Positions 9,657-41,091 of a stretch of 64,000 bases of DNA are shown one piece after another. Positions within the stretch are counted from its first letter, which is position 1. Every line of letters begins with the position of its first letter. The notes beneath the pieces were generated by a model. That model did not search any database, was not told the origin of the DNA, and saw only the letters and a list, made by a program, of their open reading frames with translations. Source of the stretch: Dehalococcoidia bacterium (GTDB taxonomy: Bacteria > Chloroflexota > Dehalococcoidia > SM23-28-2 > WHTN01); assembly GCA_009377715.1 (NCBI GenBank), contig WHTN01000003.1, positions 14,396-78,395 on the forward strand. Direction: 5' to 3'. Position numbers and translations under genes: made by a program.

Positions 9657-9660
9657 GGCC

Positions 9661-10052: not shown

Positions 10053-10250
10053 ATGGACGAGGCACGAAGAAAAGAATTGCTGGAGATGCTTGAAGCCGAA
10101 GCACGCGCCAAAGGAACGTCTAATTCAGGCGATATCGACCGCTTGAAGAAAGCGTTCGATAGCCAGTTCGGTTGGGCTTACAATAATCCGCACGCTGCTA
10201 TCGATGAAGAGAACGTCAAAAGGTTCGTTGCCCACGAGCTTAAGGGCTAA
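10053..10250 (+). CDS. Hypothetical small protein (65 aa)
   Basis: Strong RBS (AAGGAG) 8 nt upstream of the ATG. A hairpin lies downstream. Confidence 0.4.
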   Translation: MDEARRKELLEMLEAEARAKGTSNSGDIDRLKKAFDSQFGWAYNNPHAAIDEENVKRFVAHELKG

Positions 10251-10371
10251 GCATTACTCAGCGTTAGAATACGGGCGAACGAAGTTCAAGCATTTTGAAG
10301 AAACTTGAATTCCGTCCGTTCGCAATGCTTTAATTGATATGCAGCGATAGCACCGCAGTTGTTTATGCCAG

Positions 10372-10446
10372 TGCGGGAGTAGCTCAGTGGTAGAGCTCTT
10401 GCCTTCCAAGCAAGATGTCGCGGGTTCGAGTCCCGTCTCCCGCTCC
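10372..10446 (+). tRNA. tRNA-Gly (anticodon UCC)
   Basis: GCGGGAGTAGCTCAGTGGTAGAGC...anticodon loop CTTCCAA...GGTTCGAGTCC...CTCCCGCTCCA. Cloverleaf with encoded CCA. Confidence 0.9.
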
Positions 10447-10469
10447 ACTTTTGCGCTTGAGGTAAACCA

Positions 10470-10727
10470 ATGTCTGAAGATCTGAGCGGCAGCTCCAGAG
10501 TTGTTCCGGTAAAAGTTATCGCGAAGCGCATCTCCGAGATTCTCGGATCGTCGGGCGGCAGCGTTGAAGAAGCCTGCTGGGCTTTTGTCAACGAGCCGCC
10601 CGACGATCCGCTAAAGCGCCTCATGAGAGGGACGTGGGATGCCCGCGGCCGCGAGCTCCTCATTGGCTGGTACTACGAAGGCGCTAAATTCGATCTGACC
10701 GAGCCGGACAGTAACGAAAGCGCGTAA
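10470..10727 (+). CDS. Hypothetical protein (85 aa)
   Basis: ORF immediately after tRNA-Gly. No family recognised. Confidence 0.35.
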   Translation: MSEDLSGSSRVVPVKVIAKRISEILGSSGGSVEEACWAFVNEPPDDPLKRLMRGTWDARGRELLIGWYYEGAKFDLTEPDSNESA

Positions 10728-11509: not shown

Positions 11510-11638
11510 CCTTGGTATTCCAACTATAGATTACAATCTGGTTGAACAAAATAGCGATTTTTGTTTACCATTGTGTATGGTAGCGTTTTCAAGCGGCTTG
11601 CGAAGGATTGAATAGTCTCACTAAGAACGAGGTAAGGA

Positions 11639-12496
11639 ATGGCTAAAATTCTAAAACTGGATCACATGTTATTGGTGGGGGCAGTGATTCTTACTGTATT
11701 GTTCGCCAGCGCTATGGCGTTCTTGTTGGTATCAGGAGGTAGTCCGAAACCCACTGTGGCTCAAATTGTCGACCAGGCGTCAGAGGCATCTATTGTTCCG
11801 CCAGCGGGCAATGTGCTCTACGTCAAGACCGATATTTACCGTAGATATAAACCTGATGCGGACCAGGCGCCTGCAGAAGGCCCCGAAGGAGATAGGCCGA
11901 GTTTATATTCACTAATTCCCGAGAGAAGGATTTTTGAAGTATGGATGGAGATTGCTGATTCTGGTGGCCTCGTAAGCCAACGCTACGGGATTCTTACTGA
12001 TCAATCTGGCCAAGTTATTCAGGAGGAACTCTATGATGGGGATGCTGAATTCCTTCATGAGGCTTTTCTTAATAGGGTAATAAAGTTTCCTGATCAGGAG
12101 CCCCCAAAGGCTGGCGTAACTATCAATATTGATGAACTACTGGCAGCGGACAATGCAGAACTGATCGGTGAAGGTTCATTGGCTGGGGAATCAGTGTATA
12201 TCATTGAGGTTAGACGCGTACCTACGCCCGGAGAGCTAAAGCAGGAAGGGGACTATGTCTCCCCTTACTATGCCGATCTAGCGCCTGTTGAACTGGTGTC
12301 ACGCTATCAGATAGCGAAAGATTTCTACTTTCCATCAGGCAGGGAGCTATTTGCCGTTCAGGCGGACGGTTCTCGCCACTTGGTAAGCCATAACCTAAAA
12401 GTTGAGATATCTACGATGCCCGCAAGCCAGCTTCCGGATGACTTCTTTAGCCTCAAGCATGCTGCTGGCGCTGATGTAGTTGAGGCAAAGCGCTAG
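11639..12496 (+). CDS. Hypothetical membrane-anchored extracytoplasmic protein
   Basis: N-terminal TM helix then a soluble domain. Lies in a low-GC stretch. No confident family. Confidence 0.45.
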   Translation: MAKILKLDHMLLVGAVILTVLFASAMAFLLVSGGSPKPTVAQIVDQASEASIVPPAGNVLYVKTDIYRRYKPDADQAPAEGPEGDRPSLYSLIPERRIFEVWMEIADSGGLVSQRYGILTDQSGQVIQEELYDGDAEFLHEAFLNRVIKFPDQEPPKAGVTINIDELLAADNAELIGEGSLAGESVYIIEVRRVPTPGELKQEGDYVSPYYADLAPVELVSRYQIAKDFYFPSGRELFAVQADGSRHLVSHNLKVEISTMPASQLPDDFFSLKHAAGADVVEAKR

Positions 12497-12508
12497 GAGG
12501 CCAGGAAG

Positions 12509-13033
12509 ATGAAACTTATATTCAAAGTTAGCGTCGTTCTCGCATTGTCCTTACTTAGCGTAATTCTTTCACAAAGGGATTCGACCGCATACCACCTTAT
12601 GACTTGTAGTTCGGACTATATTGAAGGAATCGAAGGGCATACGTTATCAGGATATAACTGCATGAGTTTTGAAGACGGTACAGGATTTAGCTGGTTTAAT
12701 CGCAGCTGGGGAGCTTGGAACCCGGCTGGTTATATAATCATCGAAGAGGTCGAAGGTTATGATAGGTGTGAATCGACTGACCCATGGGACCTAAGGATTA
12801 ACGACTCAGATTACGCATTCTATACACAAGTACTGTGGGTTGACGCTTACGGCACGGTTCAGGACTGTGGGCAAACTCAACAGCATGAATATAGAAGTAT
12901 CGGCAAGCATTATTGGGAAGATCCATCAGGAGACCTATTAAGGGAGGTATGGACGTTCGTGTTCCTTTTGGGGCTGCTTAGGCTTTCACCCAGGTGCCGT
13001 TGTATCTCTCCGGGAAGCCGGGCGCCTGTTTGA
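12509..13033 (+). CDS. Hypothetical secreted Cys-containing protein (the 3' end overlaps the convergent gene; the true stop may be earlier)
   Basis: Signal peptide, several Cys and Trp residues. Low-GC stretch. No family recognised. Confidence 0.35.
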   Translation: MKLIFKVSVVLALSLLSVILSQRDSTAYHLMTCSSDYIEGIEGHTLSGYNCMSFEDGTGFSWFNRSWGAWNPAGYIIIEEVEGYDRCESTDPWDLRINDSDYAFYTQVLWVDAYGTVQDCGQTQQHEYRSIGKHYWEDPSGDLLREVWTFVFLLGLLRLSPRCRCISPGSRAPV

Positions 13034-14726
13034 ATCCGCCGACCCTTGGCGATACTGCGAACTCCCCGTTCGGTACGTAAAGGGGGATGTGGAGGGCCAG
13101 GTCGATGCTTTTCCTCATGATCTCCTGGAGGATAGACTTCCGTCTCTCGGGCTCATCGAGTATGACGGCCTGCTGGTCGATCAGTGCGTCCAGCGGAGAA
13201 CCGACCTGCTCGAATATCGTAGCGTCGTTTCCGCTGCTGTGGAACCAGGTGTAAAGCTGGCCGTTCGGGCCGCCACCACCGGGGCGATGGCTGCTCAGGT
13301 TCAATTCGAACTCGCCGCGCACGAACACGCGCTCGGTGATCTCGACCCTATCGATGATCCTGATTTCTGGAGCGAGGTTTACCTCGCGGAACTGTCCCAC
13401 GAGCAACTCAGCCGACCTCACCTGGTCCGATTGTGGCAGGCCAGCATCGAGTACGGGCTTCCAGGTGTTGAGATCGACGCCGGCAGCCTGGAACAGTTGC
13501 CTTGCTGCCTGGATGTCGCGACCCAGGAGGCTGTCGATCTCCGACTGCGGTAGGTGCCAGTCGGTCGAAGGTACGAAGAACCCCGGGTTGACGTAGCCGC
13601 TCCCGAATAGCACGGCGTCGATAAGGCCCTTACGATCGATCAACTTGGAGATGCCCTGACGCACCCGCTGGTCTCTAGTGGGTCCGTTTACGCCGGAAGC
13701 CATGAGCGGGATCCAGCCCTGCAGCTGCAACAGCTTGGCGTCCTGTACAGTTAGATCGGGAATGCTTTGCCTTAGGAGCTGCGTGATCTGGCCGTTAGTG
13801 TTTTGTATCAGCCCCTGTCCGGTGCGGAAAGCTGACTGCTCGGTCTGCTGGTCGGCTACAATGGTTCTCTGCCAGGTGGCAAGATAGGGAATACCTTGTT
13901 CCCAGTAGTTAGGATTCGCTTGCATAGTTATCTGCTGCACAGGGATGTGCTCACCGAATAGCCAGGGCCCTGAACCTATCGTAGGGCCGTTTTGCAAATT
14001 GCCGTTTACGTTAACGGCTTCCGGAGCCGCAATCTTAGCCCGCACTTCGGACATCGCCCAAACGAAGTCCGCATCCGCCCGCTTCAACTTAATTTCGACC
14101 GTCCTTGGATCAGTTGCAGTAATGGTGTCCACCGCGTTTAGAATACCGGCATTCGTACGCTCAGACCGTATACGTTCGAGGCTGAAGACAATATCCGCAG
14201 CCGTGACGTCGCGCCCGCTTACGGGAGGTACGTTTTGCCATTTCAAACCCTGGCGAACCTTGAAAACGTATGTCGTGGGGTCAACAGTCTCAAAGCTCTC
14301 AGTGACGTCGCCTGTGAACTCGATTGAATCCGGGTATTTGCCCAGATCGAGGTTTAACGGTCTCCCATAGGCGATCGCCGGCCCTGTGTCATGCAAAGCC
14401 AGGAACGATTGAGAGTGGGGGTCCATATGAGGGAAGTCGCTGGTGTCGAAGGTCACTAGGCTTAGCGTGCCTCCTCGCTGGGGCTGCTGGGCCCCACCAC
14501 CGGTGGGCGAAGTCGTACCTGACGGCGATTCCTCGTCGTCACCACAGCCGATTACCGCCGCGGCTGCTAGCCCGGCACTGCCAAGTGCTGCCCCCTGTAG
14601 CATACGGCGGCGGCTTAGTCGTCGCTGCCAGAGGCGGTTCCAATAGTTATGCTCTTCAACCATGTAAAAGTCACTCCTCCATAAACTGATTAAATAATCT
14701 ATACAATCGAAAACACTTAGTGTCAA
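12978..14726 (-). CDS. ABC transporter substrate-binding protein, family 5 (peptide/nickel), Tat-signal lipoprotein
   Basis: RRRMLQGAALGSAGLAAAAVIGC (twin-Arg plus lipobox) followed by SBP_bac_5-like sequence. The start is possibly an internal Met near 14663. Confidence 0.8.
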   Translation of the reverse strand: MTLSVFDCIDYLISLWRSDFYMVEEHNYWNRLWQRRLSRRRMLQGAALGSAGLAAAAVIGCGDDEESPSGTTSPTGGGAQQPQRGGTLSLVTFDTSDFPHMDPHSQSFLALHDTGPAIAYGRPLNLDLGKYPDSIEFTGDVTESFETVDPTTYVFKVRQGLKWQNVPPVSGRDVTAADIVFSLERIRSERTNAGILNAVDTITATDPRTVEIKLKRADADFVWAMSEVRAKIAAPEAVNVNGNLQNGPTIGSGPWLFGEHIPVQQITMQANPNYWEQGIPYLATWQRTIVADQQTEQSAFRTGQGLIQNTNGQITQLLRQSIPDLTVQDAKLLQLQGWIPLMASGVNGPTRDQRVRQGISKLIDRKGLIDAVLFGSGYVNPGFFVPSTDWHLPQSEIDSLLGRDIQAARQLFQAAGVDLNTWKPVLDAGLPQSDQVRSAELLVGQFREVNLAPEIRIIDRVEITERVFVRGEFELNLSSHRPGGGGPNGQLYTWFHSSGNDATIFEQVGSPLDALIDQQAVILDEPERRKSILQEIMRKSIDLALHIPLYVPNGEFAVSPRVGGFKQAPGFPERYNGTWVKA

Positions 14727-22992: not shown

Positions 22993-24750
22993 TTGTTTCA
23001 AGGAGTAGATACGATGGCAGTCGAATTAAGTAACATAAGCAAAGAGGAGCGGTTGCACAGGATGCGCCACTCCGCGGCACACATCATGGCAGAAGCCGTG
23101 CTCGAAATCTTTCCTGAGGCGAAGTTCGCTATCGGCCCGCCCATAGACACCGGTTTCTATTACGATTTCGATCTGCCCAGACCTCTCACCCCGGGGGACT
23201 TGCCGGTCATCGAAGCGAAGATGCGTGAACGCATAGCCAGTAATGTGCCATTCGTTTATTCGGACATAAGCAAAGACGAGGCGCGACAGCTTTTCGGAAG
23301 CCAGCCCTATAAGCTTGAGATCATCGAGGAGATCCCCGATCAAGAGGTAAGCCTCTATAAGCATGCGAATTTCGTAGACCTTTGCCAGGGCCCGCACGTC
23401 AATACCACCGCGGACGTCCCGGCGTTCAAGCTGGTTAGCACAGCGGGCGCCTACTGGCGCGGCGACGAGAGCCGCCCCATGTTGCAGCGTATTTACGGCG
23501 CTCTTTTTGAGACAGAGGAAGAGCTAAGCGGATACTTGCAGCACGTCGAGGAGGCGCAGCGTCGAGACCATCGCCGCTTGGGACGTGAACTCCAGCTTTT
23601 CATGACCGATCCCGTGGCGCCGGGCAGCCCGTTTTTCTTCCCGAAGGGCGCGTTCATCTATAACCGTCTAGTGCAATATGTGCGAGACCTTTACAAAGAA
23701 TACGGTTACGAAGAGGTGATAAGCCCGCAGGTCTACGGTGTAGATCTGTGGCGGCGCTCCGGGCACTACGAGAACTATCAGGAGAATATGTTCTTTATCG
23801 ACATCGAAGACCGAGAGTTCGGTCTAAAGCCGATGAACTGCCCCGGCCACGCGATGATGTACGCGGCGCGGACGCATTCTTACCGCGAGCTTCCAATACG
23901 GTACGCTGACTTCAGCAGGCTACACCGCTTCGAACGCTCCGGTGTATTGCACGGCCTAACTCGCGTTCGCAGCTTCGCCCAAGACGATTCCCACATATTC
24001 TGTACCCCTGACCAAGTTCAGGCCGAAGTCCACAATTTCCTACGCATGCTCTTGGATACGTACAAGATATTCAGCTTTAGCGATGTGCGCATTCAGCTTT
24101 CGCTGCGGCCTGAGAAGCGTGTAGGTACCGACGGGATGTGGGACCGGGCAGAAGATGCGTTGCGTAGGGCGCTGAACACTCAGGAGATCGATTTCCTTGA
24201 AATCCCCGGCGAGGGTGCGTTCTACGGCCCCAAGATCGATTTCATGGTGACGGACGCCTTGGATAGAGAATGGCAACTCGGCACCGTGCAGCTAGACTTC
24301 AATCTCCCTGAGCGCTTTGACCTCGAATACGTTACCGAAGATGGAAGCCGCGAACGGCCCGTCATGGTGCATCGTGCGGTATTAGGGTCGCTGGAGCGAT
24401 TCATTGGCGTGCTCATCGAGCACTACGCAGGCGCCTTTCCCCTGTGGCTCGCTCCAGTGCAGGCGACCCTGATCCCAATTGCCGATCGACATGCGGAGTA
24501 TTGTCGTGATGCGGCTGCCTTCCTAAGTAAATCCGGACTGCGAATCGAAGTGGACGCAAGCAATGAGCGCATGAACGCCAAAATACGGCAGGCGCAACTG
24601 CAAAAGGTGCCGTACATGCTCGTCGTCGGAGATCGAGAACTCGAAGCAGAAGCTGTATCCGTTCGCAGTAGAAGCGGTGAAGACCTAGGCTCCATGAAAG
24701 TTCCCGAACTTCAAGCCCGTCTACTTCACGAAATCGAAACGTATAAGTAA
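22993..24750 (+). CDS. thrS: Threonine--tRNA ligase (short form lacking the N-terminal TGS domain)
   Basis: Editing-domain HxxxH (HSAAHIM), class II catalytic motifs (FRVRSFAQDDSHIF, GxGxGxER) and anticodon-binding domain. Confidence 0.9.
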   Translation: MFQGVDTMAVELSNISKEERLHRMRHSAAHIMAEAVLEIFPEAKFAIGPPIDTGFYYDFDLPRPLTPGDLPVIEAKMRERIASNVPFVYSDISKDEARQLFGSQPYKLEIIEEIPDQEVSLYKHANFVDLCQGPHVNTTADVPAFKLVSTAGAYWRGDESRPMLQRIYGALFETEEELSGYLQHVEEAQRRDHRRLGRELQLFMTDPVAPGSPFFFPKGAFIYNRLVQYVRDLYKEYGYEEVISPQVYGVDLWRRSGHYENYQENMFFIDIEDREFGLKPMNCPGHAMMYAARTHSYRELPIRYADFSRLHRFERSGVLHGLTRVRSFAQDDSHIFCTPDQVQAEVHNFLRMLLDTYKIFSFSDVRIQLSLRPEKRVGTDGMWDRAEDALRRALNTQEIDFLEIPGEGAFYGPKIDFMVTDALDREWQLGTVQLDFNLPERFDLEYVTEDGSRERPVMVHRAVLGSLERFIGVLIEHYAGAFPLWLAPVQATLIPIADRHAEYCRDAAAFLSKSGLRIEVDASNERMNAKIRQAQLQKVPYMLVVGDRELEAEAVSVRSRSGEDLGSMKVPELQARLLHEIETYK

Positions 24751-24922
24751 TTGTCGCTGTGGTTAGACTATAGCGAGGCCTAGATCGTGTAACACTGTCT
24801 CGTTTAGTACGCCATAGTCTTATAGATAAATCTATGGACGTGACGGTTAACTTAATGGTAGCCTGAGTTGTTTAATATATAAACTGCTAAAGTTGGGACG
24901 ATAGTAGTAGGGCTAACTATAG

Positions 24923-25507
24923 ATGCAAAATATTATCACAGGCCACTGGGAAACCACCGATGCGGCAGCCGAGGTTGAAGAGGAAGAACGCGGGAGCACT
25001 GATGGTGGATTTGTCTCACGCTACAACGAGTATTTTCCTAAGGTCTTTGCCTATTTGTATAGCCGGGTCCAAAATAGGGAAGCTGCTCAGGATTTAGTAG
25101 GAGAAGTCTTCGAAAAAGCCTTCGCGAAGTCAGAAAACTTACGGTCAAAAGACGCATTTGGCGCCTGGCTATTTACAATAGCTAGAAATACTGCAGCTTC
25201 TTACTGGCGTAAGCAAAAACTGGCTGCTAATGCACTCAGGGCCATCGGGTGGCAGACCGAGCTTTTCGATATCTCACCGGAGGAATCAGTTTTAGAGCAC
25301 GAAAGGATCGGGGTACTGATAAGTCTGTTGCAAGAATTGCCTCAAAGAGAGCAAGATATTTTGTCGCTGCGGTTTGATGCAGATTTATCTAATCGCGATA
25401 TCGCGAAAGTTATGGGTATAAGCGAGGTAAACGTTAGGGTTATTATTTATCGCGCTATACGCAAATTACGGGATCAAATGAACGACATCCTACCTTCTGC
25501 CATGTAA
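24923..25507 (+). CDS. ECF subfamily RNA polymerase sigma-70 factor
   Basis: Region 2 (YLYSRVQNREAAQDLVGEVFEKAF) and region 4 HTH (LSNRDIAKVMGISEVNVRVIIYRA). AT-rich upstream region. Confidence 0.75.
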   Translation: MQNIITGHWETTDAAAEVEEEERGSTDGGFVSRYNEYFPKVFAYLYSRVQNREAAQDLVGEVFEKAFAKSENLRSKDAFGAWLFTIARNTAASYWRKQKLAANALRAIGWQTELFDISPEESVLEHERIGVLISLLQELPQREQDILSLRFDADLSNRDIAKVMGISEVNVRVIIYRAIRKLRDQMNDILPSAM

Positions 25508-25527
25508 TACCCTCATATACAAATAGT

Positions 25528-25558
25528 GACACCGCTTTCACCAAGGGAAAGCGGTGTC
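25528..25558. terminator. Hairpin terminator (GACACCGCTTTC-ACCAAG-GGAAAGCGGTGTC) between the convergent sigma and XRE units
   Basis: Perfect 12-bp stem directly after the sigma factor stop. Weak T-tract. Confidence 0.4.
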
Positions 25559-25577
25559 TTCGCGTACTGCCCAGTGA

Positions 25578-25754
25578 ATTACTCGGACGGGTCGTGACGA
25601 CGCTCTCGCATCATCTCGTATAACAGGTTTTCGACCGCCAGCAACAGCAGTAGCGCCATCCTCTGCTGCCGGCGAGGCATCCTTGATAAATGCTGAAGTA
25701 GATCGAAATCGATCTTTTCAGCAAGCGCGATGCGGTCTTCAAATTTGTCTGCCA
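25578..25754 (-). CDS. Hypothetical 58-aa protein downstream of the XRE regulator
   Basis: ATG at 25754. Reads MADKFEDRIALAEKIDFDLLQHLSRMPRRQQRMALLLLAVENLLYEMMRERRHDPSE. Not in the ORF track (under 60 aa). Co-directional and 20 nt after the XRE gene. Confidence 0.3.
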
Positions 25755-25773
25755 TATTAGCTGGGGATCCTCA

Positions 25774-26166
25774 CTATATTTCGTTCTTCGGTTCAGGCCG
25801 GGCGCTTAATATAGCACCCTCTACAACATTTCCAAGTCCTTCCAAGAGGTAAAGCAATCGGCGTTGGTGGTCTCGAGACATATGACCAAGGTAGCGCAAA
25901 AGATCTGGATCTACTTGTGCCTCATAGCCCTCGTAGGAGCGGCGCAAGGTGCGTACGGACGGATAACCGGCCGCCTCGAAGAGCTCATCTGGGTTAACGT
26001 GCATGGCTTCCGCAAGGCGTAGTAAGACAGCCGCACTCGGGTTCTTAACATCCCCGTTTTCGATTTGTGAAAGATATGCCTGGCTGAGGTCTGCAGCTAG
26101 CGATAATTGTCCTTGACTTGCCCCCATCGATTGCCTGAATTCTCTGATCTTACTCCCAAGTTCCAT
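25774..26166 (-). CDS. XRE family helix-turn-helix transcriptional regulator
   Basis: N-terminal HTH_3: SKIREFRQSMGASQGQLSLAADLSQAYLSQIENG. Confidence 0.75.
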   Translation of the reverse strand: MELGSKIREFRQSMGASQGQLSLAADLSQAYLSQIENGDVKNPSAAVLLRLAEAMHVNPDELFEAAGYPSVRTLRRSYEGYEAQVDPDLLRYLGHMSRDHQRRLLYLLEGLGNVVEGAILSARPEPKNEI

Positions 26167-32745: not shown

Positions 32746-33447
32746 ATGAGCAGAGTAAGCGATCTTTACCAGCTTCAGGAGACAGACTTGGCGATAGATG
32801 TAGCGACCGCTTCTCTGACCGATATAGAGGAGCGCCTGAGCCACGACGAAGAGGTGGTGGCTGCTAGAGAAGCTGTTGCGTACCTGGAACAGCGCCTTGC
32901 CCATCTCCGCCGGCAGCAGCGAGACGTCGATCTTGACGCGGAAGACCTACGCCGACGGGTGAAAGCGGCTGAGGATAAGCTTTACGGTGGTTCTGTGCGT
33001 AACCCGCGTGAACTTGAGGACTTACAGAAGGATATTCAAGCTCTGACCCACCAGCTTAGGGGGCGTGAGGATGAAGTCCTTGGCCTGATGATGCAGGCAG
33101 AGGAAACGAACGGCGAGTTGGAGAACGCCAAAAGGCAGCTATCTGAGCTTGAAGCCCAGTGGACTGCCCAACATGAGGAACTACTACGCCAGCAGCAGGC
33201 GGTCCGATCGGAACTAGTAACTTTGGAGCAGCAGCGTGTCGGTCAGCTTCCCCGAGTAGACGCGCCTTCGATGTCGCTTTACTCTTCCTTACGCAAGACG
33301 CGACAAGGCAGGGCCGTGGCTCGTGTGCAGCAGGGGATGTGTCAGGGCTGCCGTATAGCGCTCCCTATGACGGTGCTTCAAAAAGCTAGACCCGGCATAG
33401 AACTCGTTCAATGCCCGAGCTGCGAGCGTATCTTATTCGTGAGCTAA
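32746..33447 (+). CDS. COG1579 zinc-ribbon coiled-coil protein (DUF164)
   Basis: Long coiled coil followed by a C4 zinc ribbon (CQGCRIALP...CPSCERILF). Confidence 0.7.
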   Translation: MSRVSDLYQLQETDLAIDVATASLTDIEERLSHDEEVVAAREAVAYLEQRLAHLRRQQRDVDLDAEDLRRRVKAAEDKLYGGSVRNPRELEDLQKDIQALTHQLRGREDEVLGLMMQAEETNGELENAKRQLSELEAQWTAQHEELLRQQQAVRSELVTLEQQRVGQLPRVDAPSMSLYSSLRKTRQGRAVARVQQGMCQGCRIALPMTVLQKARPGIELVQCPSCERILFVS

Positions 33448-33449
33448 CC

Positions 33450-34862
33450 ATGCAAGCGATCGGTTATTTTTACGTCCCAGAGGGGGGCGGCGATGCTCTG
33501 GCTGAGCGCCAGCACGAATTCGCTGCCTTCTGCAAAAAACAGGGCTATGAGATGGCAGCTACTTTCCTCGACGTATCAGGGCGCAATGGCGATATGTCGG
33601 GTTATACCCAGCTACTGGCCTTTCTTAAGCGGCCAGAGCGAGGCATGGTGGTTGTCGTCGTACCCTCACCTGGCGACCTCGGCCGGACGCCGCGCGAGAT
33701 AATGCGGTCCTACTTCGATCTCGACTCGCTTGGCGTAAACGTCGTTTGCCTTGATGGCACCCCCGATCTCGCGCGTGCCGTACTGGCCGCCTGGCCGACC
33801 TTACAGAACGGTCAGGATGCTGGCGAGAAGGTGCGCGATGCCATGCGCCGCAAGGCAATTAAAGGCGAGGTGTTGGGTCGCGCCGCTTATGGCTACAAGT
33901 CCGGCGCACGGCGTCGCTTGCAAATAGTGCCGGCGGAGGCAGCCGTTGTCCGTTACATCTTCCGGCTTTATCTCCGCGACGGCTTGGGAATACGTCTAAT
34001 CGCCCGCCACTTGAATGAAGAAGGCTTCCACACCCGGCGCGGCGGCCTTTGGAGCATGGTCGGTGTGCGCGACATTCTACGGAACCGGGTATATCTCGGC
34101 ACGTACAGCCGGCTCGGCGTGCGCGTTCCCTATAGCCACCCGGCGATCATCTCCCAGGACGACTTCCGTCGGGTGCAGGAGCGTCTGAACTCGAGGCGTC
34201 CTAGCAGCACGAACCGTGAGACGGCGCTTTTCCTGCTTTCAGGGCTGCTGTATTGCGGATCCTGCGGCAACAAGATGACCGGTGTTACTCGCCGTCAGCG
34301 CTGGCAGCGCAGCGGCGACGGCGGCGAGAGAAGCGCCATGTACCGCTATTATCAGTGCCAGTCACGCATCAATCAGAGCGTATGTAGTTACCGTACACAC
34401 AGGGCAAACGACCTAGAGGAAGCGGTCAGACAGGCGCTTTTAGGAAAGCGTGGCACGGTGGTCGAAGCGATGCCCCAGGCTGGCGATGCTGAGGCAGCTC
34501 TGCACGAAGCGCAAAAGCGATGCGACCAGCTTAAGACTAAGATGGCCCGGCTCGAAAAAAGGCTTGAGACCTATTTGGAGGCAGCCGCCACGGGTAGGGT
34601 AAGCTACGAGCGCCTCCGTAATCTGGGGTCATCTATGGCTGAACAGCGCTTGGTCTTGCTCGAAAGCCTGGAAGAAGCGCAGCAACAAGCGCAAAGGCAG
34701 TCCACAGCGGCTGAACGCCTGAAGAAGCGTTCCGAAGCGCTCGTCCAGTTGACCGGGGAATGGGACTACATGACCCCAGTCCAACGTCAGGCGCTTTTAA
34801 GAGACCTGGTCGACCGGATCACGGCGGAAGAGGGCGACATAAAAGTAACCTTGAGCCATTGA
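33450..34862 (+). CDS. Large serine recombinase homolog with a degenerate catalytic motif (predicted inactive)
   Basis: Full domain architecture: resolvase-like N-domain, recombinase domain, zinc ribbon (CGSCGN...YQCQSR...CS) and C-terminal coiled coil. Where the YxRVS nucleophile motif should be, the protein reads IGYFYVPEGGGD (Arg to Tyr, Ser to Pro). Confidence 0.7.
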   Translation: MQAIGYFYVPEGGGDALAERQHEFAAFCKKQGYEMAATFLDVSGRNGDMSGYTQLLAFLKRPERGMVVVVVPSPGDLGRTPREIMRSYFDLDSLGVNVVCLDGTPDLARAVLAAWPTLQNGQDAGEKVRDAMRRKAIKGEVLGRAAYGYKSGARRRLQIVPAEAAVVRYIFRLYLRDGLGIRLIARHLNEEGFHTRRGGLWSMVGVRDILRNRVYLGTYSRLGVRVPYSHPAIISQDDFRRVQERLNSRRPSSTNRETALFLLSGLLYCGSCGNKMTGVTRRQRWQRSGDGGERSAMYRYYQCQSRINQSVCSYRTHRANDLEEAVRQALLGKRGTVVEAMPQAGDAEAALHEAQKRCDQLKTKMARLEKRLETYLEAAATGRVSYERLRNLGSSMAEQRLVLLESLEEAQQQAQRQSTAAERLKKRSEALVQLTGEWDYMTPVQRQALLRDLVDRITAEEGDIKVTLSH

Positions 34863-35908: not shown

Positions 35909-36601
35909 ATGAATACGACCACCAACATCCGCGATAACCCGCTCGAAGCGATCGCTGCCATAAAAGCTGCCGATCCTGTAATGGCTGCCGTGATCGACCA
36001 GGTCGGCCCATTCGACCTAGGCGCGCGTCGCCCGCCGTTTATGGCCTTAGCAAGAGCCATTGTCTTCCAGCAGCTAGCGACTAAGGCCGCCGCTGCCATC
36101 CTAGCGAGAGTCCTTGCTCTGTACGGTGGTGAATTTCCAACGCCGAAGCAGCTTTTAGCCACGCCCGACATCGAACTGCGCCGTGCGGGGCTATCCGGAC
36201 GCAAGGTGGAGTACCTCAAGGGCCTGGCGTCCGCGTTTTTAAATGGTCTAGTCGATGAGGCCCTCCTCGACTCGCTCACCGACGAAGAGATCGTGTTGCA
36301 GCTAACTCAGCTCAGGGGTATCGACCGCTGGTCAGCGGAGATGTTCTTGCTCTTTTGCCTCGGCCGTCCGAATGTATTGCCGCTAGGCGACCTCGGCCTT
36401 CGCCAGGCCGTCGGCCGCTTGTACGGCCTCGGCTCCTCGCCGACGGATGACGAGATTCGTTCGCTTGCCGAGCGCTGGCAGCCGTACTGTAGCGTCGCTA
36501 CGTGGTACATGTGGCGCAGCCAGTTCACCGTAGCGTTGACGATATGGACGAGCGATCCAGAGAAGGGCGATCCGTCATCGGATGGACAAAAAATGGATTA
36601 A
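35909..36601 (+). CDS. DNA-3-methyladenine glycosylase II-like (HhH-GPD family, AlkA type)
   Basis: HhH motif (LTQLRGIDRWSAEMFLLFCLGRPNVLPLGD) and WYMWRS C-terminal motif. Confidence 0.7.
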   Translation: MNTTTNIRDNPLEAIAAIKAADPVMAAVIDQVGPFDLGARRPPFMALARAIVFQQLATKAAAAILARVLALYGGEFPTPKQLLATPDIELRRAGLSGRKVEYLKGLASAFLNGLVDEALLDSLTDEEIVLQLTQLRGIDRWSAEMFLLFCLGRPNVLPLGDLGLRQAVGRLYGLGSSPTDDEIRSLAERWQPYCSVATWYMWRSQFTVALTIWTSDPEKGDPSSDGQKMD

Positions 36602-36672
36602 CAGATAGCCTGATAAAAACGTATCCGTTAATCCGTTTATGGAATCCGTTGTCAGATGCTTGTGAGGTAGAA

Positions 36673-37626
36673 GTGGCTCTCTTCATCACCGAAAACGAAG
36701 TTAAATCCCTCCTGACCATGGATATCGCGCTGGAGGCCGTAGAGTCGGCCGCGCGTGAGAACGCCAACGAAGGGGCGCTCAACAGCCCGCGTCGTCGCCT
36801 CGCGGCGAGCGGCCGCTCGCTGCAGATGATGCCGGCGGCCATCCCGGCCTGGGGTGTCATCGGCTATAAGAGCTACCTAGGCGGTGGTGGAGGCGCCTAC
36901 TTCCTGGTCTTCCTCTATAGCCTGGAGTCCGGGAAGATACTCGCCGCGATCGAGGGCAACAAGATGGGCCAGATGCGCACCGGCGCGGCAAGTGGCGTCG
37001 CGACCAAGTACATGGCACGCCCCGAAGCGAAGAGGGTTGGCATCATCGGCTCCGGTTATCAGGCGCGCTCGCAGTTAGAGGCCGTCTGCGCAGTGCGTCC
37101 CATCGAGATCGTCCGGGTCTACAGCCGCGCGGAAGAGAAACGTCGTGCCTTCGCCGACGAAATGGGTAATGCGCTAAGCGTTGCCATCGAGCCAGCCGAG
37201 AGGCCACAGACTGCTGTGAGTGACGCTGACATCTTTATCGTCGCGACGAATACGAGCGAGCCGGTGCTTTTCGGCGAATGGCTACCCCCGGGCACGCACG
37301 TCAACGCCGTTGGTGCCAACTCTATCCCCCGCCGCGAACTCGACGACGAAGTAGCGCTTCTTAGCGGCACCATCGTTGTAGAGTCGCTAGAGCAAGCCAA
37401 GCTCGAGGCGGCAGACCTACTCAGCCCCATCGAGCGTGGCAACTTAAGTTGGGACCGCGTGACCGAGCTTAAAGACGTAGTTTCCGGCCGAGCGCTGGGC
37501 CGGCAAGACGCCAACGAGATCACGCTGTTCAAGTCGCTTGGCATCGCTTTGTGGGACATAGCGGCTGGCTACCGTGTCTACGAATTGGCGAAAGCATCGG
37601 GTATCGGGCGGGAGTTGCCGTTCTAA
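36673..37626 (+). CDS. Ornithine cyclodeaminase/mu-crystallin family protein
   Basis: GTG start with an upstream GAGG. ...ITENEVKSLLTMDIALEAVE N-terminus and GIIGSGYQARSQLEA Rossmann motif. Confidence 0.75.
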   Translation: MALFITENEVKSLLTMDIALEAVESAARENANEGALNSPRRRLAASGRSLQMMPAAIPAWGVIGYKSYLGGGGGAYFLVFLYSLESGKILAAIEGNKMGQMRTGAASGVATKYMARPEAKRVGIIGSGYQARSQLEAVCAVRPIEIVRVYSRAEEKRRAFADEMGNALSVAIEPAERPQTAVSDADIFIVATNTSEPVLFGEWLPPGTHVNAVGANSIPRRELDDEVALLSGTIVVESLEQAKLEAADLLSPIERGNLSWDRVTELKDVVSGRALGRQDANEITLFKSLGIALWDIAAGYRVYELAKASGIGRELPF

Positions 37627-37644
37627 TATATGCACAGAGGGACC

Positions 37645-38125
37645 AATGGCTACAGCGGACGAAAACGAAGATCAAAAGAATATTCTTATAGAGCTTGATC
37701 TATTCGCTAACGGTATTGATTTCATTCTGACTGGCATAGATGGACTCTTTGAAGATAGCCTTGAACTACGATTCTACCCAAGCCCTTTGGAAAGGTCGTT
37801 AAGGAGTTATAAATACGGCATTCTTCATTTATTTTCAGGCTTTCTTTTGTTACTTAAAGAGCGACTACGCCGACACTTGGAAGAAATGATTTTTAAAGGA
37901 AGCGTTAACGAAGTTAGGGCAAAGCTTAAGGGCGATAGAATTCCCAACACAATCGATTTGGATGAGGCTCTAGATCGAATGGAGATGGGGCCACGTGTGA
38001 CATTCTCAGAATCTGAGTTAAAGACCATACGTAGGATGCAGGATCTTAGAACAAATTTGAACACTATAAATTCTCAGCTAACCGCTTTGAGATCTGGTCC
38101 GAAGTTTCAGACTTTTTGTCCCTGA
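37645..38125 (+). CDS. Hypothetical protein in the low-GC island (160 aa)
   Basis: About 42% GC against a ~60% background. No recognisable family. Confidence 0.4.
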
Positions 38126-38568
38126 TTGATCGGTTTTTGGTGCAACACCTGGAAGTCAATCTCGAAGTAGTGACTCAAGAGACTAGACTAATAGAGAAGA
38201 TTAAATTGATCGAATCCGTATGGAAACGGATTTTGGAGCAGAGGGAAGAGGAATGGCGCCAGCAAATGCGCCCCAAGGTAAAGTACTTCAAAGAAAATCG
38301 GGAAGATGTGCTATCGGATTTGGAGTTTGAGCACCGCACGGAAAAGGGAGCATTTGAGATGTTCACGACTTGTCCAGAGTGCTACCAGTGCACCCTAATA
38401 GCCGAAGGCGACTATCGAGGCATTTGTTCCAACACAAACTGCGAAGAGTGGTTTCCTTTGACTGCTTGTTCGGTTTGTGGTGGCCTAGCGATTGGATTCC
38501 GGTGGGAAGGTGTAGTCTGTGAAAGCTGCGAGGACAGATTTAACGAACTTGTGAATCAACCCGACTAG
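38116..38568 (+). CDS. Hypothetical protein with a C-terminal Cys4x2 zinc-ribbon-like cluster (low-GC island). TTG start or frameshifted continuation of the previous ORF.
   Basis: CPECYQC...CSNTNCEE...CSVCGG...CESCEDRF. Overlaps the previous ORF by 10 nt in another frame. No ATG is available in this frame. Confidence 0.4.
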   Translation: MSLIDRFLVQHLEVNLEVVTQETRLIEKIKLIESVWKRILEQREEEWRQQMRPKVKYFKENREDVLSDLEFEHRTEKGAFEMFTTCPECYQCTLIAEGDYRGICSNTNCEEWFPLTACSVCGGLAIGFRWEGVVCESCEDRFNELVNQPD

Positions 38569-38590
38569 TATCAGGTTGATACGATGCACC

Positions 38591-39130
38591 ATGACCTCGA
38601 ACTACGATATCGAAAAAGTGCGCGCCGAGTACATCGGCAAGGAGACGCCGCCCGTACTCGGACGCTACGCCGCCGAGCACGACCCAATCCGTCGCTACTG
38701 CCACATGGTGGAAGACCGCAATCCGCTCTTCCTGGACGCTCACTACGGCGAGAAGAGTCGTTACGGCGCCACCGTTTGCCCGCCCGCCGGTTGGCTCGCG
38801 ATGTACTTCGCCGGGCTCGGCCCCTGGCCGCCGACGATAGAGCCGCTGCTGCCCATCGTGCCGACCCCGGGCCGACGCTTCGTCAATCTTGTTGTCGAGA
38901 CGGAGAACTTCAAGCCCATCAAAGTCGGTGACCGGCTTTCGTCCAAGAAGCGCGTAGCGGATGTTTACCAGAAGGCGATACGCCTCGACCCCGAGGCCGT
39001 ATGGATCGTCGGCGAGACGATCATCTCGAACCAGGACGACGAAGTGGTGTGCATCGTGCGCAACACGTACGTAGTGCACCGCACGCTGCAGGAAGTGGCG
39101 GCTGCGCAGGCGAAAATGGGGAAGGCTTGA
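38591..39130 (+). CDS. MaoC-like hotdog-fold protein (N-terminal-type dehydratase subunit)
   Basis: ATG at 38591 (MTSNYDIEK). Hotdog-fold length. Paired with the downstream MaoC dehydratase gene. Confidence 0.55.
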   Translation: MTSNYDIEKVRAEYIGKETPPVLGRYAAEHDPIRRYCHMVEDRNPLFLDAHYGEKSRYGATVCPPAGWLAMYFAGLGPWPPTIEPLLPIVPTPGRRFVNLVVETENFKPIKVGDRLSSKKRVADVYQKAIRLDPEAVWIVGETIISNQDDEVVCIVRNTYVVHRTLQEVAAAQAKMGKA

Positions 39131-39190
39131 TCCGCTCTTTATCTTGTTGGCCCCTCGACAAGCTCGGGGTGAGCGGAAAATACGCCTAAC

Positions 39191-39325
39191 GTCATTGCGA
39201 GGTCGCCAGAGGTGGCCGAAGCAATCTCTGATTTGCGAAAACGATGTTTGTTACAAGTGGCGTGGAGGATATGCAGAGATTGCTTAGCGAAGTTTATCCT
39301 CAGGAACCGAAGGGCTCGCAGTGAG
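39191..39325. repeat. MITE-like repeat (GTCATTGCGAGGTCGCCAGAGGTGGCCGAAGCAATCTCTGA...GTTTATCCTCAGGAACCGAAGGGCTCGCAGTGAG), inverted orientation relative to the copy at 41189
   Basis: High similarity to the reverse complement of 41189-41333. Confidence 0.6.
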
Positions 39326-39342
39326 TCCGAAGGATTGAAATC

Positions 39343-39789
39343 ATGAAATCACGCCAGATCTACTGGGAAGACATTGAAGTCGAGGAAGAAATACCCGGCT
39401 ACGACATGGAGATCGACGCCCGGCGCATGGTTCTTCAGCTTAGCGGCTCGCAAGACCACTACCCCATCCATTTCGACCGCAACTTCGCCCGCGCCGCCGG
39501 CCACGAAGATGTTTTTATGAGCAGCGGCTTTACGGAAGCGGCGCTTGTACGTGTTATCACTGACTGGATGGGGGACGAAGGCTGGCTGCGGAAGCTACGC
39601 TTGGAACTGCGCCGCCAGAACCGCATTGGCGATACGATGGTCTGCAAGGGCCGCGTCGCCTCAAAGTACGTCCAAGACGGCGACCATTACGTCGAATGTG
39701 AGGTTTGGGCCGAGAACCAGCGTGAGGGCATCACGACGCCCGGCCGCGCTTGGGTGATCCTGCCGTCGCGAGAGGGCAGCCAGCGCTGA
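39343..39789 (+). CDS. MaoC-like (R)-specific enoyl-CoA hydratase/dehydratase
   Basis: Hotdog-fold MaoC signature region (HYPIHFDRNFARAAGHEDVF). Confidence 0.7.
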   Translation: MKSRQIYWEDIEVEEEIPGYDMEIDARRMVLQLSGSQDHYPIHFDRNFARAAGHEDVFMSSGFTEAALVRVITDWMGDEGWLRKLRLELRRQNRIGDTMVCKGRVASKYVQDGDHYVECEVWAENQREGITTPGRAWVILPSREGSQR

Positions 39790-39790
39790 T

Positions 39791-40285
39791 ATGCCGAGCG
39801 TCGTAGGCCATGCGATCGTCGGTTTGGCAATTGCAAAAACGCTTCGATTAAGTCGACGCGAAACGGCGCTCGCTGTCGGTCTTGCGGTTGTGCCGGATGC
39901 CGACGTTGTCGTCGGCTTCGTCGGCAAAGGCGACGGCGAAGTTTGGCACCGCGCCAAATGGAGCCATTCTTCAGCAACGTCATTAGCCGTAGGAACGATC
40001 GCAGCCGGAGCGACGCTAGTTATGCCGGCTAGGCGCAAGAACGGTTGGAGTTACCGTGAAGCGTTGCGAGCGGGATCGCTAGCTTCCGCCATGGTGGCAT
40101 CGCATCTCGTGTTAGACCGCTGGCTCCGCAATCCGCTAGAGCGGCGAAAACGGTTACGCTTCAGTGAGCCACGGCACCTACCGGGCGTGGTCCATTACCA
40201 TGTGAAGAACTTGCCAAACGATGTCGTATTTTACGGGTCGCTGGGATTAGCGTTCTACCGAATCTCGCGCTGGCTTGGTCTTTAG
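39791..40285 (+). CDS. Membrane-bound metal-dependent hydrolase (DUF457/YdjM-like)
   Basis: N-terminal HxxxG membrane segments. 164 aa hydrophobic protein. Confidence 0.45.
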   Translation: MPSVVGHAIVGLAIAKTLRLSRRETALAVGLAVVPDADVVVGFVGKGDGEVWHRAKWSHSSATSLAVGTIAAGATLVMPARRKNGWSYREALRAGSLASAMVASHLVLDRWLRNPLERRKRLRFSEPRHLPGVVHYHVKNLPNDVVFYGSLGLAFYRISRWLGL

Positions 40286-40455
40286 AAGCCGCTTGATGCG
40301 CGGAATAGCCGCGCGTGTCGCTTTTTCGCCCCGCACAATGCTTAACGGTATTTGAAAAGGCGAGAAGGAGGTTATGCCGGCCATCTGCGGCCTGATCAGA
40401 ATGTCGGGTTGCCGGCGTGGAGAGCGTCCCTTCGCCAGCAGTCGTGCCGTAAACG

Positions 40456-41091
40456 CTACTTGCGAGAGCAGCGTTGGCAGCGGCGCCCCTCGCAACCCTT
40501 CGGCGATGAGCGCTGCCGCCGGCCTAAGGACGCGCGGCAGCGCTCGTCGCCTAGGTGGATGGCAATGACTACGTCCGCTCCCAAGCCGTACGCAATGTCC
40601 ACCGGCAGCGTATTATGGACACCGCCATCGAGCAGGAACTGGTTGCCGAACGGCATCGGACGGGCCAGCATGGGCGGCGAGATGCTCGCCCGCATGGCGT
40701 CGACCACTCTACCTTCGCGCATAACGATCTCTCGGCCGGTCGCCAGGTCTAGCGAGACGGCCGCGAACGGTATCTTGAGGTCGGAGAACTTCAAGCCGTT
40801 TAATACGGCGCCCAGCCGCATCCCCAAGGCCGAAGGCGGCTCGCAGGTCAGGCCGCACAGGTACCAGCGCAGCAACTGTCTGGGCTTGATGCGTCGCATC
40901 ACCCGCTCCATACGGTCCGGGTCGCCAACGGCGGCGTAGACCGAGCCGAACAGTGCCCCCGCGCTCGCCCCAACGATGAGATCGATGGGGATCTGCTGCT
41001 TGTGCAGCATCTTCAGCGCGCCGATGTGCGCAAACCCCTTCGTCCCGCCGGCGCCGAGAACGACAGCAACTTTCGTCATGGCCTTAGTCAA
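40456..41091 (-). CDS. Patatin-like phospholipase (N-terminal 3/4). The C-terminal part continues in another frame as ORF 40247..40495, giving an apparent frameshift at ~40456-40495.
   Basis: GAGGTKGFAHIG (GxGxxG), GASAG nucleophile elbow and DGG motif. ORF 40247..40495 encodes the expected patatin C-terminus (PDILIRPQMAGITSFSPF). Confidence 0.6.
   Translation of the reverse strand: MTKAMTKVAVVLGAGGTKGFAHIGALKMLHKQQIPIDLIVGASAGALFGSVYAAVGDPDRMERVMRRIKPRQLLRWYLCGLTCEPPSALGMRLGAVLNGLKFSDLKIPFAAVSLDLATGREIVMREGRVVDAMRASISPPMLARPMPFGNQFLLDGGVHNTLPVDIAYGLGADVVIAIHLGDERCRASLGRRQRSSPKGCEGRRCQRCSRK

Follow-up and report, generated by a model that had tools for sequence, protein, structure and literature searches.

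The window analyzed here is a stretch of 64,000 nucleotides (64 kb) from a Dehalococcoidia bacterium. In it, an ornithine cyclodeaminase/mu-crystallin family gene (OCD; 36679..37626, + strand; Pfam OCD_Mu_crystall, 1e-61; GC 0.62, GC3 0.74) and a FAS1_DH/MaoC-like dehydratase gene (FAS1_DH; 38591..39130, + strand, assigned by Pfam; GC3 0.81) enclose positions 37627-38590, the lowest-GC stretch in the 64 kb (0.43 versus a mean of 0.565). Measured in 200-nt windows, the GC content drops from 0.60 to 0.385-0.50 between ~37600 and ~38600 and then returns to 0.635, and the minimum over the 64 kb is the 930-nt window starting at 37651 (0.434; mean 0.565, sd 0.035, z ~ -3.7), which bears out the low-GC island with sharp borders that a preliminary description of this DNA had reported. 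The two parts of the gene inside the island have a GC3 of 0.39 and 0.52, versus 0.69-0.81 for the flanking HhH-GPD, OCD, FAS1_DH and MaoC genes. The insertion is bordered on the left by the OCD gene and on the right by the FAS1_DH gene, both at native GC.

Read directly from the sequence, a 19-nt spacer (37627..37645, + strand) separates the OCD stop codon (TAA, 37624-37626) from the ATG of the island gene, and it contains a Shine-Dalgarno-like GAGGG at 37637-37641. A sigma-70 scan of 36400-39400 gave no + strand promoter for this gene, no excess of promoters or terminators was found at the island, and its borders carry neither a target-site duplication nor a terminal inverted repeat, only short chance repeats. 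A small inverted repeat with 10-nt arms and a 6-nt loop spans the stop codon of the gene (38555..38580, + strand); it has no T-run and may be of chance origin.

Two overlapping open reading frames in different frames occupy the island, as first described. ORF1 runs from an ATG at 37646 to a stop at 38123-38125, ORF2 from a TTG at 38116 to a stop at 38566-38568, and the overlap is 10 nt. At the composition of the island, the probabilities of the two frames being open by chance are ~1.5e-4 and ~1.2e-5. In the three-frame translation, the ORF2 frame is open already from 38050, directly after a TAG at 38047-38049, and the frame switch is thus placed at 38050/38051, ~65 nt upstream of the interval 38095-38125 to which a frameshift had been provisionally assigned. 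Treating ORF1 and ORF2 as separate units was dropped, and the joint reading was adopted because the ORF2 frame opens at 38050 and the join yields RNKFEH, an Rx4H motif (R135-N-K-F-E-H140) whose R135 is encoded by 38048-38050 and H140 by 38062-38064. The lesion itself (38048..38052, + strand) was located by the three-frame translation and by comparison with the codons of 13 homolog loci: AGA-AAY (Arg-Asn) there reads AGA-AC in the window (AGAAC), one A of the A-run at 38050/38051 being lost.

After repair, the 5' segment (37646..38050, + strand; defined by translation, alignment A1 and AF2 secondary structure) supplies codons 1-135 (M1...R135) in the ORF1 frame, and the 3' segment (38050..38568, + strand) supplies codons 136-307 (N136...D307) and the stop TAG at 38566-38568 in the ORF2 frame. 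The repaired protein aligns end to end with its homologs, gap-free across the junction, and all 92 of these are single ORFs of ~297-307 aa with 30-54% identity to it. This comparison shows 37646-38568 to be, by homology, one gene of 307 codons made of the two joined ORFs; of the two possibilities raised earlier, one protein of ~310 aa split by a frameshift is borne out, and an overlapping gene pair falls to the same 92 uninterrupted homologs. The out-of-frame read-through tail of ORF1 (38051..38125, + strand; …TNLNTINSQLTALRSGPKFQTFCP*) has no counterpart in any homolog and, judging from these alignments, lies outside the ancestral protein. The TTG start of ORF2 at 38116 is an artifact. A genuine pair of overlapping genes and one product of programmed -1 ribosomal frameshifting would both be suited by two open, overlapping frames and by a protein that a one-base shift restores. 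We regard either as effectively refuted, considering that every homolog is one uninterrupted ORF, that the break falls inside an invariant catalytic motif, that ORF2 lacks an ATG and would start, with the TTG at 38116, only downstream of the HEPN motif, and that no Rfam element was found at the locus. Programmed frameshifting was also rejected at the site itself: CTT AGA ACA is not an X-XXY-YYZ slippery heptamer, and in the -1 frame a TAG directly precedes it.

The gene is inactive as sequenced, because the lesion falls between R135 and N136 of the predicted catalytic motif, and the proposal of a working defense cargo in this island thus fails for the window copy. The copy keeps 53 of the 56 family-conserved positions, the three differences being conservative, which points to a recent lesion. 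The missing A may instead reflect a mistake of sequencing or assembly within a short A-run, with an intact and functional HEPN-zinc-ribbon gene in the organism. Such an error would suit a copy that is undecayed apart from one base, with those 53 positions kept and both halves open; indels are possible in MAG consensus sequences, and frameshifts occur in some other MAG copies of the family (two in the one at locus L031), which could likewise be errors. We consider this unlikely, though with a real chance of being right. The lesion is also present in a separately assembled Logan contig (SRR10173838), which is identical to the window over 3,124 nt (100% identity), and an AA/AAA run is too short for typical short-read homopolymer errors. 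Toxic HEPN effectors are, moreover, often inactivated in nature, and we count this against an assembly error. An exact look-up of the ORF1 product and of AsnB in the contig index gave no match.

The alignment and the structure model together show a predicted order of an N-terminal HEPN domain, a helical hairpin and two Cys4 zinc ribbons in the repaired protein. The HEPN domain (~residues 15-170; 37688..38154, + strand) was delimited by the invariant columns of alignment A1 and by hhalign against the HEPN domain of HEC-08. R135, N136 and H140 are invariant in the 25 sequences of A1, where the motif consensus is R135-N-x-x-E-H140, and further invariant columns are N22, D25, F26, K56, Y57 and H61. 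The 5' segment encodes HEPN helices H1 (19-34) and H2 (52-77), an inserted subdomain (79-114) and most of H3, and in the AF2 model the Rx4H motif closes a helix of residues 122-140. A long helical, coiled-coil-like hairpin (residues 178-232; 38176..38340, + strand; AF2 helices 178-217 and 219-232, block pLDDT ~79-96) links the HEPN domain to the ribbons. Zinc ribbon 1 (C243-x2-C246 ... C261-x4-C266; 38371..38442, + strand) has C243, C246 and C266 invariant in A1 and C261 at least 90% conserved; zinc ribbon 2 (C275-x2-C278 ... C292-x2-C295; 38467..38529, + strand) has C275 invariant and C278, C292 and C295 at least 90% conserved, with modeled strands at 272-274 and 281-283. These eight conserved cysteines in two Cys4 sets agree with the C-terminal double zinc ribbon noticed at the outset. 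The AF2 model of the whole repaired protein is confident (pLDDT 84.5, pTM 0.74) and has four core helices, the hairpin and a small beta module, and its best Foldseek matches in the PDB are HEPN toxins, HepT and Csm6, none of them significant (E>=0.29).

No family had been recognized for the N-terminal part, which is nevertheless not an orphan; it carries the Rx4H motif and is a DUF3644/HEC-08-type HEPN domain. HEC-08 (Hma-embedded candidate 08; E. coli ECOR52, WP_001313577, 366 aa) is a validated single-gene anti-phage HEPN and zinc-ribbon protein in which mutation of H128 abolished defense (Payne et al. 2024, bioRxiv 10.1101/2024.01.29.577857). Alignment A1 matches it by hhalign at 96.2% (E 2.7e-9; query 18-172, HEC-08 23-164, 138 columns), and H140 pairs with H128. 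Two family members match the models directly, one (P0092) at 8e-24 for HEC-08 and 4e-21 for DUF3644, the other (P0089) at 5e-7 and 1e-10. The window protein itself has no match to the HEC-08 HMM (PDLC04162) at E<=1 among the PADLOC models, and it thus represents a related subfamily, not HEC-08 itself; its match to Pfam DUF3644 is below threshold (E 0.015). Its PADLOC match is to PDC-S64, through PDLC05059 (E 4.4e-13; residues 51-257 across the junction, profile 29-216 of 339) and a second model, PDLC05058 (3.8e-7). Family members reach PDLC05059 down to 7e-26, and HEC-08 matches the PDC-S64 model at 3e-8. A literature search for PDC-S64 by name found no mention in the papers covered. These profile comparisons show the family to be homologous, at the sequence level, to PDC-S64 and, distantly, to HEC-08. 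The Pfam HEPN_Apea model has no match to the window protein at E<=1; among the homologs, only P0078 passes its gathering threshold (26.4 versus 24.4 bits). Sub-threshold Pfam/NCBIfam matches of the repaired protein to DUF6537, DUF3644, zf-C4, GrpE and Bgr_08870 were set aside as evidence, and matches from a PDB sequence profile search to a primase small subunit (22 bits), TniQ and nuclear-receptor zinc fingers are weak and were judged spurious or generic.

The family comprises 2,550 cluster representatives with a patchy spread, mostly in filamentous cyanobacteria, and it reaches Cyanobacteria, Anaerolineaceae, Myxococcota, Acidobacteriota, Bacteroidota and Bacillota. Most members are annotated as hypothetical and some are mislabeled 'GrpE' or 'Nop10'; variants of 411-425 aa exist, and P0009 of Nostoc sp. 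FACHB-892 is one of the intact homologs. At every one of the 40 loci examined, the flanks are less AT-rich than the gene. Its neighbors within two genes on either side elsewhere include Type I R-M, GmrSD, HicAB, DUF4411, HEC-05, PD-Lambda-1, integrases and transposases. One copy adjoins a prophage integrase, and the copy at locus L011 has Mrr next to it, inside a low-GC island. The neighbors in the window are OCD, FAS1_DH/MaoC, YdjM and patatin, with no BREX, DISARM or Type I R-M among them; the window is thus no defense island, its neighbors being metabolic.

In HEPN-MNT toxin-antitoxin systems, HEPN domains commonly act as the toxin (Anantharaman et al. 2013, PMC3710099), and this family may accordingly serve not against phages but its own horizontal spread, as a stand-alone toxin, an addiction-type selfish element or an RNase that responds to stress. 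The gene is AT-rich and patchy, and a Nostoc copy lies beside small toxin-antitoxin pairs, both as such an element would have it. We think this distinctly improbable. No MNT antitoxin gene adjoins the window copy, none is seen among 144 neighbor ORFs in the 25 most-matched of 102 families, and no conserved partner gene of any kind adjoins in the window or across the loci; the nearest characterized relative, HEC-08, defends as a single gene; and the best library match is a defense-candidate model.

The origin of the island is best seen in a close relative of the host. In a Dehalococcoidia MAG contig from JGI 3300056388 that carries P0101, a FAS1_DH at least 90% identical to that of the window, the gene is absent between OCD and FAS1_DH: a 142-nt spacer, from the end of OCD at 383 to the start of FAS1_DH at 526, stands where the window has 964 nt. 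On this sequence comparison, that contig is an empty site and the window copy an insertion. The comparison is informative only with members of the FAS1_DH cluster at 90% identity or more; metagenome relatives of FAS1_DH at 45-64% identity have no OCD upstream and are therefore uninformative as an empty-site test. The gene is also absent at the FAS1_DH-MaoC loci of other relatives. The empty site, the GC3 contrast and the patchy phyletic spread together uphold the horizontal acquisition proposed in the preliminary description. The vehicle might have been a serine recombinase 2.8 kb upstream, but this is rejected for now, because HhH-GPD and OCD in between keep native GC.

A housekeeping role in RNA processing or regulation, with the low GC reflecting only a composition rich in Lys, Glu, Ile and Asn, was also considered. 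The place of the gene in several Nostoc genomes is indeed conserved, between aat and rplU-rpmA or close by, and a GC content below that of the flanks in every host may partly be amino-acid composition. Against this role stand the empty site in the close relative described above, other relatives whose FAS1_DH-MaoC loci lack the gene, a GC deficit that is greatest at third codon positions, broken or truncated copies in several genomes and the sporadic phyletic pattern, and we give it very little credence.

We therefore consider it probable that a bare single-ORF HEPN-zinc-ribbon gene, a relative of HEC-08 and PDC-S64, was inserted between OCD and FAS1_DH of a Dehalococcoidia (Chloroflexota) genome and then broken by the loss of one A. 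Our verdict is that the gene belongs to a known defense-associated HEPN-zinc-ribbon family, and that this copy was acquired recently and has recently been inactivated (or was mis-sequenced). For intact members, we infer RNase activity, a role in defense and a sensor role of the zinc ribbons. We propose the following: First, the HEPN domains would dimerize and form a composite metal-independent RNase site. Second, cleavage may be licensed by the zinc-ribbon and coiled-coil module when it binds nucleic acid or a cue derived from phage. The cutting of tRNA, rRNA or mRNA would then stop translation in the infected cell, that is, abortive infection. The defense or abortive-infection role originally suggested for the island is thus favored by homology (PDC-S64, the HEC-08 profile) for the family, and it does not extend to the window copy, which is inactive as sequenced.

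More tentatively, and with somewhat less than even confidence, the cyanobacteria-centered clade (HEPN, coiled-coil hairpin and double Cys4 ribbon in ~300 aa) may be a distinct single-protein abortive-infection RNase, in which the hairpin/ribbon module is the sensor and the C-terminal modules are swapped in the 411-425-aa variants. It would move between phyla as a bare ORF that no recognizable mobility gene or repeat accompanies. In the Dehalococcoidia copy, we would be seeing a toxic effector that was acquired and nearly at once inactivated.

Since the window gene is probably dead, its biological consequence at this locus is small. Two 'hypothetical' ORFs have nevertheless become one interpretable gene with an exact lesion, and a large unannotated family is now tied to the validated HEC-08 type of HEPN and zinc-ribbon defense protein. 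This provides researchers of cyanobacteria and Chloroflexota with a testable candidate immune gene, and the locus presents a clean single-ORF insertion with its empty site, followed by the knock-out of a probably toxic RNase.

Among known systems, the HEPN-MNT toxins (HepT/SO_3166; PDB 5YEP, 7AE8, 6M6W) serve as the reference fold for HEC-08 and ApeA. They top the Foldseek list without reaching significance (E>=0.29) and have the four-helix HEPN core with Rx4-6H that is predicted for the repaired protein; the repaired protein adds the insertion, the hairpin and the zinc ribbons, and no MNT antitoxin adjoins it. ApeA is a HEPN RNase that acts as a single-protein abortive infection system and cleaves tRNA anticodon loops; in its ~580 aa, an N-terminal and a Mid domain precede a split HEPN at the C-terminus, and the protein assembles into decamers or dodecamers that have a dinucleotide-binding pocket (bioRxiv 10.64898/2026.01.26.701840). 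The likeness is in the HEPN domain, as the HEPN_Apea match of P0078 also indicates, whereas the protein described here has 307 aa, an N-terminal HEPN domain and zinc ribbons in place of the other domains of ApeA.

PDC-S64 (and, more weakly, PDC-S19) of PADLOC is the best library match; it spans the HEPN domain and the linker and leaves the C-terminus uncovered. It is an untested PADLOC candidate defined by embedding in BREX, DISARM or Type I R-M, and the window copy is not so embedded, whereas some homolog loci have Type I R-M, Mrr or GmrSD neighbors. HEC-08 shares ~17-22% identity with this protein, in the HEPN domain only. It has eight CxxC pairs (~four ribbons) and lacks the long hairpin; in this family, a helical hairpin of 55 residues precedes two ribbons. 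The zinc ribbons are alike in kind only. The hosts also differ, being Enterobacteriaceae for HEC-08 and cyanobacteria and Chloroflexota for this family, and the window copy is frameshifted. Indeed, what unites HEC-08 and this family is the plan: a single gene encoding an N-terminal DUF3644-type HEPN domain with RNxxxH and C-terminal CxxC zinc-ribbon-like modules.

The low-GC island at 37640-38570 holds a single gene broken by a frameshift. The two ORFs with a 10-nt overlap reported in the preliminary description are both present in the sequence: ORF1 runs from an ATG at 37646 to a stop at 38125, and ORF2 from a TTG at 38116 to a stop at 38568. That description left open an overlapping gene pair or one ~310-aa protein split by a frameshift, and it is the second reading that the homologues bear out. 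The ORF2 frame is open from 38050, not 38116, directly past a TAG at 38047-38049, and starts with NKFEHYKF; ORF1 up to 38050 reads ...RRMQDLR, and the join gives ...MQDLRNKFEHY.... With the joined 307-aa protein as query, 92 homologues were found, all of them single ORFs, typically of 297-307 aa and with identity up to 54%; in a 25-sequence alignment there is no gap at the junction, and R135, N136 and H140 are invariant. At the lesion site, the window has AGA-AC where homologues have AGA-AAY, indicating that one A of the A-run was lost at 38050/38051, so the frameshift lies ~65 nt upstream of the region proposed earlier for it (38095-38125). Two features are artefacts: ORF2's TTG "start" and the final 25 codons of ORF1.

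An assembler-specific error is argued against by a Logan contig (run SRR10173838; its reads may be the same ones) that matches 37755-40878 at 100% identity, lesion included. Programmed frameshifting is implausible: the slippery heptamer is absent, a -1-frame stop lies directly before the site, and the homologues are all contiguous. Apart from the missing base, the copy is undecayed: of 56 positions with at least 80% conservation across the family it keeps 53, a figure that falls in the range seen for intact members, and its differences at the other three are conservative (F/L, M/L, M/L); thus, the lesion is either recent or an error. The deletion splits R135 from N136-H140: the ORF1 product lacks the motif His and helix 4, and any ORF2 product from the TTG at 38116 lacks the entire motif. 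Since neither product holds the complete motif, the locus is non-functional as sequenced, and the gene is probably a pseudogene.

The invariant R-N-x-x-E-H is the Rx4-6H motif of HEPN domains, which places in a known superfamily a protein for which no known family had been recognised. The window protein has no significant Pfam match; a homologue (P0078) exceeds the Pfam gathering score for HEPN_Apea, and in PADLOC the window protein itself matches the candidate defence model PDC-S64 (E 4.4e-13, residues 51-257, spanning the repaired junction) and, more weakly, PDC-S19. The alignment gave a confident AlphaFold2 model (mean pLDDT 84.5, pTM 0.74). Its core is four long helices (19-34, 52-77, 122-140, which bears the motif, and 147-167); besides these it has a helical subdomain inserted at 79-114, a long hairpin of helices (178-232) and a small beta module with the Cys residues. 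Sequence searching gave no credible relative among solved structures. The double zinc ribbon of the preliminary description holds: eight conserved Cys form, by their spacing, two Cys4 zinc ribbons, C243-x2-C246...C261-x4-C266 and C275-x2-C278...C292-x2-C295. Several JGI records label family members "molecular chaperone GrpE" or "rRNA maturation protein Nop10", probably through spurious coiled-coil and zinc-ribbon matches; against the window protein, Pfam GrpE scores no better than E 0.14.

The sharp GC drop noted earlier is real. In 200-nt windows, GC of about 0.60 gives way to values of 0.385-0.50 over ~37600-38600 and then recovers to 0.635, and the lowest value of the entire 64 kb, 0.434, is that of the 930-nt window from 37651 (mean 0.565, sd 0.035). 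The contrast is strongest at third codon positions, with GC3 of 0.39 and 0.52 in the two parts of the gene and 0.69-0.81 in the flanking HhH-GPD, ornithine cyclodeaminase (OCD), MaoC-like dehydratase (FAS1_DH) and MaoC genes. The island is almost coding sequence only, beginning 19 nt from the OCD stop and ending 22 nt before the FAS1_DH start. The second- and third-lowest patches of the window (both 0.45-0.46 over 930 nt) lie at ~24600-25800, with a sigma-70/ECF-like gene (24923..25507) just past ThrRS, and at ~11600-13050, with two ORFs (11639..12496 and 12509..13033) that have no Pfam match; these may be further acquired cargo.

The window is chromosomal, carrying ThrRS, AspRS and SelB, and belongs to a 78.6-kb NCBI contig. 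Among named proteins its AspRS resembles only those labelled Dehalococcoidia or Chloroflexi, at 63-68% identity, which makes the host an uncultured member of the class Dehalococcoidia in Chloroflexota. On a JGI metagenome contig whose FAS1_DH (P0101) clusters with that of the window at 90% identity or more, the end of OCD (383) and the start of FAS1_DH (526) are separated by a spacer of 142 nt, against 964 nt in the window; the HEPN gene is therefore an insertion in, or strain-variable within, the host lineage. More distant relatives keep FAS1_DH-MaoC(-patatin), with neither OCD nor the HEPN gene upstream. Of the horizontally acquired cargo proposed earlier, the acquisition is supported by this spacer, by GC3 and by the patchy phyletic spread of the family; the cargo as sequenced is probably a pseudogene. 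Target-site duplication, terminal repeat, tRNA and adjacent mobility gene are all absent from the island borders. Upstream by 2.8 kb, with native-GC genes between, is the gene of a large serine recombinase (domains Resolvase, Recombinase and Zn_ribbon_recom; 33411..34862, + strand); it and the end of a CT398-like coiled-coil/Zn-ribbon gene (32746..33447) overlap. In the stretch 36502-36678, the listed OCD ORF (GTG 36502) shares 100 nt with the end of the HhH-GPD gene (36601), and residue 60 is the first that Pfam matches; the true OCD start is probably further downstream.

The family is large. At E<=1e-3, an exhaustive profile search returned 2,550 cluster representatives, of which 1,258 reach E<=1e-10 and 140 reach E<=1e-30; most of the representatives measure about 270-330 aa and match from end to end. 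Species-representative genomes yielded 40 loci, mainly in filamentous cyanobacteria (Nostoc, Microcoleus, Nodosilinea, Lyngbya, Tychonema), the others being scattered over Anaerolineaceae, Polyangiaceae/Archangium, Acidobacteriota, Bacteroidota, Bacillota and others; the gene is below flank GC in 40/40, by 0.02-0.19. Only one of 2.9 million viral contigs (L047) has a relative, which adjoins a large serine integrase and an M23 peptidase; a large serine recombinase is near both this homologue and the window island. Frameshifts occur elsewhere, one each in L023 (~10450-10474) and L044 (~3049-3063) and two in L031 (~10281-10290, ~10396-10441), due either to the repeated decay of a toxic gene or to sequencing errors in the MAGs. 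Three proteins of 411-425 aa (L021, 38-1273; P0080; P0081) keep the N-terminal ~200 aa (HEPN and linker) and have, in place of the zinc ribbons, another C-terminus with a weak HEAT-repeat signal. Together with N-terminal-only copies in L019 and L026 (198-206 aa), their sequences suggest modular exchange of the C-terminal module.

In Nostoc, aat is followed by the gene as a stand-alone ORF, and then come rplU-rpmA or small toxin-antitoxin pairs. In L001/L003 (7650-12350) its position behind aat (Leu/Phe-tRNA protein transferase) is fixed, and what stands downstream varies: either rplU-rpmA directly, or first DUF433/DUF5615 and UPF0175 toxin-antitoxin-like pairs. About 1.6 kb upstream there is an HhH-GPD glycosylase gene, and HhH-GPD is also upstream in the window, probably by coincidence. 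The closest non-cyanobacterial copy (49% identity), in an Anaerolineaceae MAG (L011, VFKN01000105.1), is in a 33-40% GC island (6600-10500) of a roughly 55% GC genome, ordered as an Mrr_cat nuclease (512 aa), a 7-nt spacer, the homologue and a DUF7718/DUF5647 pair; the whole resembles a compact defence islet. The 144 ORFs within two genes of homologues include Type I R-M subunits, GmrSD/type IV enzymes, HicAB, DUF4411, Hypoth_Ymh, HEC-05, PD-Lambda-1, mad3, DUF3800, integrases and transposases, and housekeeping genes as well; this tally of neighbours, not a statistical enrichment, is suggestive.

No promoter of its own was detected for the HEPN gene; it is preceded by a Shine-Dalgarno-like GAGGG and points the same way as its neighbours, so any expression would probably be by read-through. 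An inverted repeat at 38555-38580 (10-nt arms ATCAACCCGA / TCAGGTTGAT, 6-nt loop), with no T-run, straddles the stop and may be due to chance. HEPN dimers build a composite metal-independent RNase site from an Arg and a His of each subunit (Anantharaman et al. 2013, PMC3710099). Drawing on this established biology, HEC-08 and ApeA, we propose as the most likely mechanism that in intact members the module made up of the coiled-coil hairpin and the two zinc ribbons would bind nucleic acid or respond to a cue of infection, which would license RNA cleavage by HEPN, and translation arrest in the infected cell would amount to abortive infection. The preliminary interpretation was largely right, and needs amending to a single gene of a known superfamily, frameshifted at 38050/38051 and probably a pseudogene.

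HEC-08, a validated anti-phage protein, is a single-gene system from E. coli ECOR52; the study that described it (Payne et al., bioRxiv 10.1101/2024.01.29.577857) also defined the 145 PDC candidates, as yet untested, that PADLOC now includes. Using its sequence (Table S2 of Payne et al.), hhalign of the family alignment gave 96.2% probability and E 2.7e-9 (query 18-172, HEC-08 23-164), pairing H140 with HEC-08 H128, the residue whose mutation removed defence in that study. Family members P0092 and P0089 match the HEC-08 model (8e-24 and 5e-7) and the DUF3644 model (4e-21 and 1e-10), and HEC-08 itself matches PDC-S64 (3e-8). The window protein itself gives no direct hit to the HEC-08 model, and pairwise BLASTP yields a marginal E of 0.018; we therefore consider it a member of a sister subfamily in the DUF3644-type HEPN + zinc-ribbon group, not HEC-08 itself. 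ApeA, a decameric tRNA anticodon nuclease, has a different architecture, with about 580 aa, N and Mid domains and a C-terminal split HEPN (bioRxiv 10.64898/2026.01.26.701840). By sequence, the window gene is a new, broken member of the HEC-08/PDC-S64-type HEPN + zinc-ribbon proteins, and being able to annotate its large, cyanobacteria-rich "hypothetical" family as HEC-08-like is the more valuable by-product.
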